From NCBI RefSeq assembly GCF_003334305.1, contig NZ_QOWS01000047.1: a stretch of 7,431 bases of DNA; one strand, written 5' to 3'. Numbering within the stretch: the stretch's first letter is position 1; every line of letters begins with the position of its first letter. Shown in pieces: positions 5,516 to 5,999 of this stretch. Made by a program: the position numbers and the translations under genes. This DNA is from Escherichia coli (GTDB lineage: Bacteria; Pseudomonadota; Gammaproteobacteria; Enterobacterales; Enterobacteriaceae). The notes below the pieces were generated by a model. It did no database searches. It saw only the letters and a program-made list of their open reading frames with translations, and was not told the DNA's origin.

Positions 5516-5706
5516 GTGATCCACTGGGGTTGCAGGGAGGGGAGCAGACTTACCGGTATGTGCCGAATCCTTTAAGATGGATAGATCCCTTAGGATTAAA
5601 TAAAGGAGCTTCATTATCTAAAATGATGAATAGCTCCAGTGATCTCATGGGGTTGAGAAGGCAGCCCCAGAACTTCTGGCGGCTATATCGCGGAAAAGAC
5701 ATTTAA
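5311..5706 (+). other. Frame-shifted 3' continuation of the Rhs gene (frame 1): conserved Rhs core end with two DPLGL motifs, then only ~34 codons before TAA at 5704-5706
   Basis: Frame 1 is open from 5311, just after a TAA at 5308-5310. It reads ...GQTSLWGLALSLPADTGYPDPRGELDPEADPGLLYAGQWRDAESGLCYNRFRYYEPESGMYLVSDPLGLQGGEQTYRYVPNPLRWIDPLGL, the typical end of an Rhs core. The upstream body is in frame 2, so a 1-bp deficit lies within about 5320-5328 (the ccggg run). Confidence 0.8.
5569..5598 (+). other. PxxxxDPxGL motif (PLRWIDPLGL) marking the Rhs core / C-terminal toxin boundary; an earlier DPLGL is at 5518-5532
   Basis: Frame-1 codons cct tta aga tgg ata gat ccc tta gga tta. Codon usage turns AT-rich from about 5560. 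Confidence 0.85.
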
Positions 5707-5738
5707 TAATAGCATTACCAGGCTCAGATGAATTCAGA

Positions 5739-5999
5739 ATGCTTGAACATTTTGGAGCCGAAGCTTCGGTATTAGACATGACGATTATTGTTCGTTCAAA
5801 TCCGAGTAAAGCCGCTATTCTTGAAGAGTTTTTACATGGTACACAAGAGAAACTAGGAATAGCTGAAAAATTAGGACGTTATGGACTAGGGAGTGCAGAA
5901 ACGCACGTTAAGGATTTCATGATAAGACACAAAAAAATGCTTGGGTTATCTGATGAGGATGTAGCAATACTCAAAATATTGAAAGACAAGGGGTTGTGA
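5739..5999 (+). CDS. Hypothetical protein (86 aa as called); probably the distal part of the Rhs C-terminal toxin domain, since the same frame is open upstream to 5643 and overlaps the frame-1 Rhs tail
   Basis: Frame 3 is open from 5643 to TGA at 5997-5999, with an in-frame ATG at 5739. The stop overlaps the next start as TGATG (5997-6001), typical of toxin/immunity coupling. The region is AT-rich. No recognisable catalytic motif. Confidence 0.5.
   Translation: MLEHFGAEASVLDMTIIVRSNPSKAAILEEFLHGTQEKLGIAEKLGRYGLGSAETHVKDFMIRHKKMLGLSDEDVAILKILKDKGL

Follow-up and report, generated by a model that had tools for sequence, protein, structure and literature searches.

At the 3′ end of an rhs gene in Escherichia coli, do a short tail and a downstream gene for a hypothetical protein represent two independent products, or are they the separated parts of one toxin domain? 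We addressed this question for positions 5599–5999 of a 7431-nucleotide stretch of contig NZ_QOWS01000047.1 (RefSeq assembly GCF_003334305.1), hereafter the window, in which a gene for a PAAR-Rhs effector of a type VI secretion system (T6SS) is followed by a small gene beginning at 5999; all window features described below lie on the + strand. We propose, with a probability of roughly 0.8, that 5599–5999 is the C-terminal toxin domain of this effector, that it was inactivated by the loss of a single G while the immunity gene was kept, and that the intact domain would act as a metal-dependent hydrolase, an activity predicted from its fold and conserved motif.

The Rhs core ends with PLRWIDPLGL (5569–5598), which reads directly as the PxxxxDPxGL boundary between an Rhs core and its toxin. 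PNPLRWIDPLGL ends at 5598, and the frame-1 tail that follows, NKGASLSKMMNSSSDLMGLRRQPQNFWRLYRGKDI, extends for only 34 codons before a TAA at 5704–5706. The frame-3 reading has no stop across the 119 codons of 5643–5999 other than its closing TGA (5997–5999), which overlaps the ATG of the next gene (5999–6001) as TGATG. The initial annotation of this stretch had described the same boundary, short tail, frame-3 opening and stop-start overlap, all of which we located at the same coordinates, and the frame-3 peptide is identical to the one it quoted. It had also proposed that a 1-bp deficit anywhere in 5643–5703, with three homopolymer runs as candidates, splits the Rhs C-terminal domain. The runs near the break are G4 at 5649–5652 and C4 at 5665–5668, both of which had been placed correctly, and A4 at 5694–5697, one base away from its earlier position.

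A search with the frame-3 peptide matched 118 proteins. Matches from other genera (Agaribacter, Bordetella and many metagenomic sequences) were 55–71% identical over 98% of the query, with E values from 1e-44 to ~1e-22, and the conservation in these unrelated bacteria included the 32 codons upstream of an ATG at 5739; matches of this strength are well beyond chance. The homologue consensus, ...RSxDDLMGVEPASPELISAVSKKR..., bridges the frame-1 'SSSDLMG' and the frame-3 'VEKAAPELLAAISRKR' of the window, and because it joins both readings at the G run, we place the break at 5649–5652, the candidate run that comes first. As the homologue alignment points to G4, we ruled out the other two runs, C4 and A4, as break points. 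The toxin domain is thus read in frame 1 for 5599–5652 and in frame 3 for 5652–5999, including the stop, and amounts to 133 aa after DPLGL once repaired, slightly shorter than the ~137 aa estimated earlier. With one G lost from G5, Rhs translation therefore stops 34 codons past DPLGL at the premature TAA, which leaves the toxin's catalytic part out of frame and detached from its carrier.

The same junction was examined by probing 5426 complete E. coli genomes with the repaired (G5) sequence. It was present in ~560 genomes, ~538 of which carried the G4 allele of the window, including REL606, ATCC 8739, E. coli C and EC93, and 16 carried G5. The single-base difference is visible in a DNA alignment of the window and EC93 (G4) with SC407, A17 and FCI51 (G5). 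In at least three of the G5 genomes (SC407, N1286 and 20KM0223N), the NCBI Prokaryotic Genome Annotation Pipeline (PGAP) called one uninterrupted Rhs of 4812 nt (~1603 aa), which stops at the equivalent of 5999, with the 95-aa gene immediately after it, and six sequenced G5 loci encode an unbroken 138 residues from DPLGL on. An error of sequencing or assembly in this particular record might come to mind, given that homopolymers are error-prone and that the same window has a second, rare 1-bp deficit after 5328, but the occurrence of G4 in ~538 independently sequenced complete genomes makes such an explanation almost inconceivable. The frame break is a true 1-bp deletion, and its frequency therefore marks a common, real pseudogene rather than a sequencing error.

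Fifteen of the 16 G5 genomes also carry a C-to-A single-nucleotide polymorphism (SNP) at window position 5680 (Ala to Glu). The state of this SNP is tied to G4 in 538 genomes and to G5 in 15, a linkage that, on these genome counts, suggests a single origin of the deletion. FCI51 is the only genome with G5 on the G4-linked background (C at 5680). Two genomes with G5 alleles, CH425 and RMDEC332, have an IS3-family element inside the toxin domain, ~70 nt past the G run, after ...ELLEAI; this insertion is a second, independent route to inactivation of the toxin.

PGAP annotates the locus differently in hundreds of genomes, including EC93, where an 'intact' 1505-aa Rhs is followed by WP_000889443.1, an 86-aa 'hypothetical protein' encoded by 5739–5999. 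If these annotations were correct as they stand, Rhs would end in its 34-residue tail and the open reading frame (ORF) at 5739 would be an independent gene. We regard this as highly improbable. The conservation across other phyla covers the 32 codons before the ATG as well as the frame junction, the G5 alleles fuse both readings, and the domain occurs as a single C-terminal unit across 443 protein clusters (described below). The promoter scan returned no promoter-like site upstream of 5739, and we found no clear Shine-Dalgarno sequence there by reading the sequence. In addition, two elements of the fold modelled for the whole domain, its N-terminal helix and its first strand, are missing from the 86-aa piece. 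The short-tailed form of Rhs together with the 86-aa ORF was seen only as one E. coli allele, and the 5739–5999 product, for which membership of an immunity family had also been contemplated, is instead the catalytic half of the toxin family: it corresponds to the C-terminal two-thirds of the domain and contains both EEFLHGTQ and ETHVKDFMIRH. WP_000889443.1 is thus an annotation by-product of the frameshift, representing the out-of-frame remainder of the toxin.

We also considered whether the G4 allele could still yield the full toxin through recoding, either by a −1 ribosomal slip on G GGG or by slippage of the G run during replication or transcription, acting as a phase-variation switch. On G-GGG, tRNA-Gly in the P site could shift its pairing back by one base, a −1 slip that would restore the frame, the next A-site codons (UUG and AGA) are rather rare, FCI51 could represent a reversion to G5, and the high frequency of G4 calls for some explanation. 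The sequence at the run (AUG GGG UUG), however, contains no X XXY YYZ heptamer, no stable structure was found 3′ of the run (z = −0.12), and a run of four to five G is short for phase variation. The linkage of the SNP at 5680 to 538 G4 and 15 G5 genomes points to one old mutation rather than frequent switching, and FCI51 is a single 'CM' assembly that may contain a homopolymer error. Recoding of the G4 allele therefore seems very improbable, and we retain the interpretation of an inactivated toxin.

A second break lies upstream, in the Rhs core itself. Relative to EC93, which has an intact 1505-aa coding sequence, the window lacks one A after 5328 (between 5328 and 5329), and the core passes from frame 2 to frame 1 at this position. 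This deletion is rare: EC93 and most other strains do not have it. The whole window matches the chromosome of E. coli strain A7 at 100% identity, and PGAP marks the rhs gene of A7 as 'frameshifted'. With the deletion after 5328 added to that at the G run, the Rhs of the window is therefore doubly disrupted.

The repaired domain belongs to a family that extends well beyond E. coli. We built a profile (A3) from 38 trimmed homologues and compared it with 1.84 billion representative proteins; at E ≤ 0.001 it matched 443 clusters at 50% identity. Among the 150 representatives listed, the domain forms the last 120–125 residues in nearly all, in proteins that range from 120 to 5903 aa; only P0251 (498 aa) has it at the N terminus (residues 8–127), followed by a long low-complexity region. 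The carriers include Rhs/YD repeats with an Rhs-associated core, the T6SS PAAR domain, full VgrG, the PT-HINT domain and Sec signal peptides. A scan of one genome per species recovered 46 loci with the domain, spanning Gamma- and Betaproteobacteria, Bacteroidota, Myxococcus, Planctomycetota, Cyanobacteria/Melainabacteria, Chloroflexota, Verrucomicrobiota and Acidobacteriota. What defines polymorphic toxin domains is such a modular, C-terminal spread over multiple carriers (PMC3482391). In E. coli the domain follows directly after PxxxxDPxGL and is joined to the core in one coding sequence in the G5 alleles, and elsewhere it occupies the C terminus of several delivery scaffolds, as is characteristic of Rhs C-terminal toxins.

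The initial annotation had described the domain as being of unrecognised type, and our searches agree. The repaired toxin had no match in Pfam, NCBIfam or PADLOC, whether fused at the A4 junction or at the correct position, and the family profile compared with PDB sequences gave nothing beyond a chance match to eS25. A word-indexed homologue search with the profile returned, among the matches listed, only proteins of 228 aa or less, with no bridging Pfam annotation. In the open-access literature, neither the motif nor the protein accessions nor EExxH zincins led to a paper that describes the toxin family. We dropped the idea that 'LYRG' in the frame-1 tail marks an ADP-ribosyltransferase, since this stretch is out-of-frame sequence. 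By its sequence distribution, the domain belongs to a widespread, unannotated family of polymorphic toxins.

What might such a toxin do? An AlphaFold (AF2) model of the repaired 133-aa domain was confident, with a predicted local distance difference test (pLDDT) score of 88 and a predicted template modelling (pTM) score of 0.80. The model comprises a helix, a strand, a helix, two strands, a long helix (residues 71–86) that carries EEFLHGTQ, and further helices, including one at 100–110 that carries ETHVKDFMIRH. Beyond true homologues, Foldseek matched it to models annotated as Tox-MPTase4, as C-terminal domains of MuF-type phage head-morphogenesis/minor-capsid proteins and as ImmA/IrrE (E ~1e-4, TM scores 0.64–0.71), with ArdC, Spartan, minigluzincins and YbeY among further matches. 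Although a new toxin fold had been suggested when the domain was first noticed, these comparisons point to a fold that is remotely similar to zincin-like metallopeptidases.

The family shows no variation at E76, E77, F78, L79, H80, G81, Q83, E101 and K105, and almost none at H103, D106, R110 and H111. All 56 aligned members and 20 further representatives have EEFLH, and HExxH occurs in none of these 76. E76 and H80 are four residues apart on one helix (i, i+4), as for zinc ligands, and the spacing of EExxHxxQ...E is that of the HExxHxxQ-E signature of PVC metallopeptidases (PMC3482391). From the model and the invariant residues we infer a metal site formed by E76, H80 and E101, with E77 as a putative general base. 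The toxin would most likely be a metal-dependent hydrolase that acts in the cytoplasm and is inactive in this strain.

Several points weigh against our proposal, most of them concerning activity. The hydrolase function is a prediction, and EExxH is equated with HExxH by topology and motif resemblance only. When the toxin profile was compared by hhalign with a Tox-MPTase4-like fragment from a Chryseobacterium locus (L010, below), no relationship was detected. To our knowledge, no zincin variant has been described in which Glu replaces the first zinc-binding His. YbeY, which is a ribonuclease, is among the fold matches, so nuclease activity is possible. On the genetic side, the exception of FCI51 implies either reversion by slippage or a homopolymer assembly error, and the retention of the broken allele by 96% of carriers is left unexplained.

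The chemistry is where a different reading carries most weight: the domain could be a toxin without being a peptidase, for example a metal-dependent nuclease on a zincin-like scaffold, as in YbeY, or an enzyme with some other substrate. Every member has Glu in place of the first His of HExxH, which suggests a different metal or chemistry, and nucleases are the commonest cytoplasmic Rhs toxins. Yet the best fold matches (ArdC, Spartan, Tox-MPTase4, ImmA/IrrE and minigluzincins) are peptidases, the HxxxHxxxxxH motif of YbeY is absent, and EExxHxxQ...E parallels a peptidase signature. We consider a non-peptidase toxin somewhat unlikely and favour a peptidase as the probable form of the hydrolase.

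The gene at 5999–6286, which is intact in the window, encodes a 95-aa product (WP_001021476.1) that is predicted to form an all-beta barrel and has no signal peptide. It had been suggested to be an immunity gene from its overlap with the toxin stop, and the comparison of loci supports that role: 39 of the 46 loci have an ORF of 85–114 aa that starts −18 to +33 nt from the toxin stop, so that homologous small genes lie 3′ of the domain in most loci and in many phyla. Twenty-four of these 39 ORFs, including the E. coli gene, were linked by phmmer at E < 1e-3, and nine others come from Melainabacteria and related Cyanobacteria and make up a second group, in which the visible pattern is the same. 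Direct BLASTP between the E. coli and Agaribacter immunity proteins was not significant, and their homology emerged only with many sequences. Such weak pairwise similarity is expected of fast-evolving immunity proteins. We presume from this gene arrangement that 5999–6286 is the cognate immunity gene. No signal peptide was found in any immunity protein of the family; if these are truly immunity proteins, the toxin would therefore be expected to act in the cytoplasm.

The immunity family had no Pfam match in 29 members and no PDB match by profile. We considered GTP_EFTU_D2, the domain II barrel of translation factors, as a relative of the immunity protein, and the sequence methods fell short of confirming this relationship: hhalign of the immunity family against EF-Tu reached a probability of 38% over the first hairpin only, with an EF-Tu query that agreed with the PDB. 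The resemblance of the predicted barrel to EF-Tu domain II is a lead, not a finding. A more elaborate model would make the toxin a new catalytic variant of zincins with Glu/His/Glu ligands, possibly preferring Mn or Fe over Zn, that targets a translational GTPase such as EF-Tu, the immunity barrel mimicking the substrate through its predicted likeness to EF-Tu domain II; we offer this idea as a speculation with a small chance of being right.

In our proposal of a hydrolase toxin with a cognate immunity protein, intact alleles would enclose the 133-aa domain within the Rhs cage, from which it would be freed by autoproteolysis at the aspartyl-protease site PxxxxDPxGL before the T6SS fires it into a neighbouring cell. 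Once in the target cytoplasm, it would function as a metal-dependent hydrolase, most likely a peptidase of zincin-like fold, with E76, H80 and E101 binding the metal and E77 serving as the general base. The beta-barrel immunity protein would block the toxin by binding it. The strain of the window would deliver no toxin and still confer immunity.

The organization of the locus agrees with that of known systems. According to a preprint, Ma et al. 2017 reportedly described E. coli T6SS PAAR-Rhs tips such as Rhs-AHH, Rhs-MafB19 and Rhs-MPTase4. Like T6SS PAAR-Rhs modules in general, the locus described here contains vgrG, an eagR-type chaperone gene, PAAR-Rhs and PxxxxDPxGL, then a short AT-rich tip and an overlapping small immunity gene, with an ISAs1 H-repeat ending the island. 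Its tip, however, matches no named tip family by sequence and, unlike the named modules, carries a frameshift that splits it here as well as in ~96% of carriers.

Among characterized toxins, a close comparison is offered by Tox-MPTase4 (PF15640; Zhang et al. 2012, PMC3482391), which polymorphic toxin systems use as a metallopeptidase toxin of zincin-like type. Both are small alpha+beta domains at the C terminus of Rhs and other carriers, both are linked to T6SS delivery in E. coli, and both have a basic residue before the motif helix; AlphaFold models of Tox-MPTase4 are among the best distant structural matches (TM scores 0.64–0.68, E ~1e-4). The two differ in that Tox-MPTase4 has HExxH and the family described here an invariant EExxH followed by GTQ. 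The Tox-MPTase4 hidden Markov model did not match the E. coli domain even at E ≤ 10, and matched one of 38 members at E = 0.085. For Tox-MPTase4, the 2012 table (PMC3482391) gives no immunity family, whereas this family has a conserved partner predicted to be a beta-barrel. The C-terminal domain of ArdC and the SprT/Spartan/Wss1-type minimal zincins (PDB 6sna, 6mdx) have HExxH with a third His or Glu, unlike the present family, and are DNA-associated proteases rather than secreted toxins. The PVC signature is similar in that a single helix bears E/H-E-x-x-H-x-x-Q and a later helix a Glu, but its first ligand is His where this family has Glu, the likeness is one of residue spacing only, and PVC peptidases are N-terminal and mainly releasing peptidases, unlike the C-terminal domain here. 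Overall, in modelled fold and in genetic context, the toxin tip is most like small zincin-like toxins.

These observations bring to light a broad family without a database model, distributed over Proteobacteria, Bacteroidota, Myxococcota, Planctomycetota, Cyanobacteria/Melainabacteria, Chloroflexota and other phyla, whose catalytic candidates (E76, E77, H80 and E101) and cognate immunity family can now be tested directly; a zincin site with Glu for His would be of interest to enzymologists. For E. coli, they indicate that about one in ten complete genomes has an Rhs effector that is 'toxin-less', with the immunity gene kept. This state is hidden by current PGAP annotation, which labels the truncated Rhs of EC93 'intact', records the toxin remnant as the hypothetical protein WP_000889443.1 in hundreds of genomes, an annotation artefact, and flags at least one Rhs with an uninterrupted G5 toxin domain, that of strain 158274-3, as 'frameshifted'.

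The remaining features of the window complete a textbook T6SS Rhs effector/immunity module, in the order vgrG, eagR-type chaperone, rhs, immunity and ISAs1, with two small ORFs between rhs and the transposase; in other E. coli strains the island is flanked by cusS and nfrA. The window start truncates the vgrG (TssI) spike gene, whose 3′ part occupies 7–681 (as an ORF, and by PGAP annotation of the identical locus in A7 and in EC93). It is followed at 709–1170 by the chaperone gene for the Rhs effector, which PGAP annotates as a DcrB-related protein (WP_001160804.1); its EagR-type role is taken from the literature (a preprint on T6SS Rhs effectors). The PAAR-Rhs delivery and cage part extends over 1190–5598, through PxxxxDPxGL, and was delimited from the ORF at 1190–5515, its frame-1 continuation, comparison with EC93 and a weak PAAR match. 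GC content falls from 0.64–0.68 in the Rhs core to ~0.38 at 5700–5999 and ~0.30 in the next gene, a contrast between core and tip that is usual for rhs loci. The interval from the immunity gene to ISAs1 (6287–7250) is AT-rich (GC 0.25–0.35) and contains small ORFs of 52 aa (6414–6572) and 65 aa (6577–6774), neither with an NCBIfam match, which may be remnants of older orphan toxin/immunity cassettes. An Rfam scan and a scan for promoters and terminators were negative. The ISAs1-family (ISEc1, 'H-repeat') transposase gene that closes the island is represented by its start at 7251–7431, as annotated by PGAP in A7 (coding sequence at 8751–9887 of that locus, L004).

Three of the other loci have features of their own. 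In a Chryseobacterium locus (L010, 7001–9700), the toxin/immunity pair lies within an array made up of small cassettes, with large proteins and a C39 peptidase gene upstream of it. The array, a Bacteroidota polymorphic-toxin cassette array, also contains the 87-aa fragment with a true HEMWH Tox-MPTase4-like motif that was used in the hhalign comparison. At another locus (L011, 7001–7650), a stand-alone 123-aa toxin domain without a carrier domain and a 91-aa partner are situated between genes for sulfite reductase and a major facilitator superfamily (MFS) transporter; this pair could be a stranded cassette or a toxin-antitoxin-like pair. Lastly, a 4.7-kb contig (JAEWTL010000053.1) of the metagenome-assembled genome 'Bacillota bacterium OH_SDB_141' encodes a 100% identical copy of the E. 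coli toxin remnant and next to it, on the 3′ side, a 95-aa ORF equal in size to the immunity gene of E. coli, and looks like E. coli contamination of a Bacillota bin.
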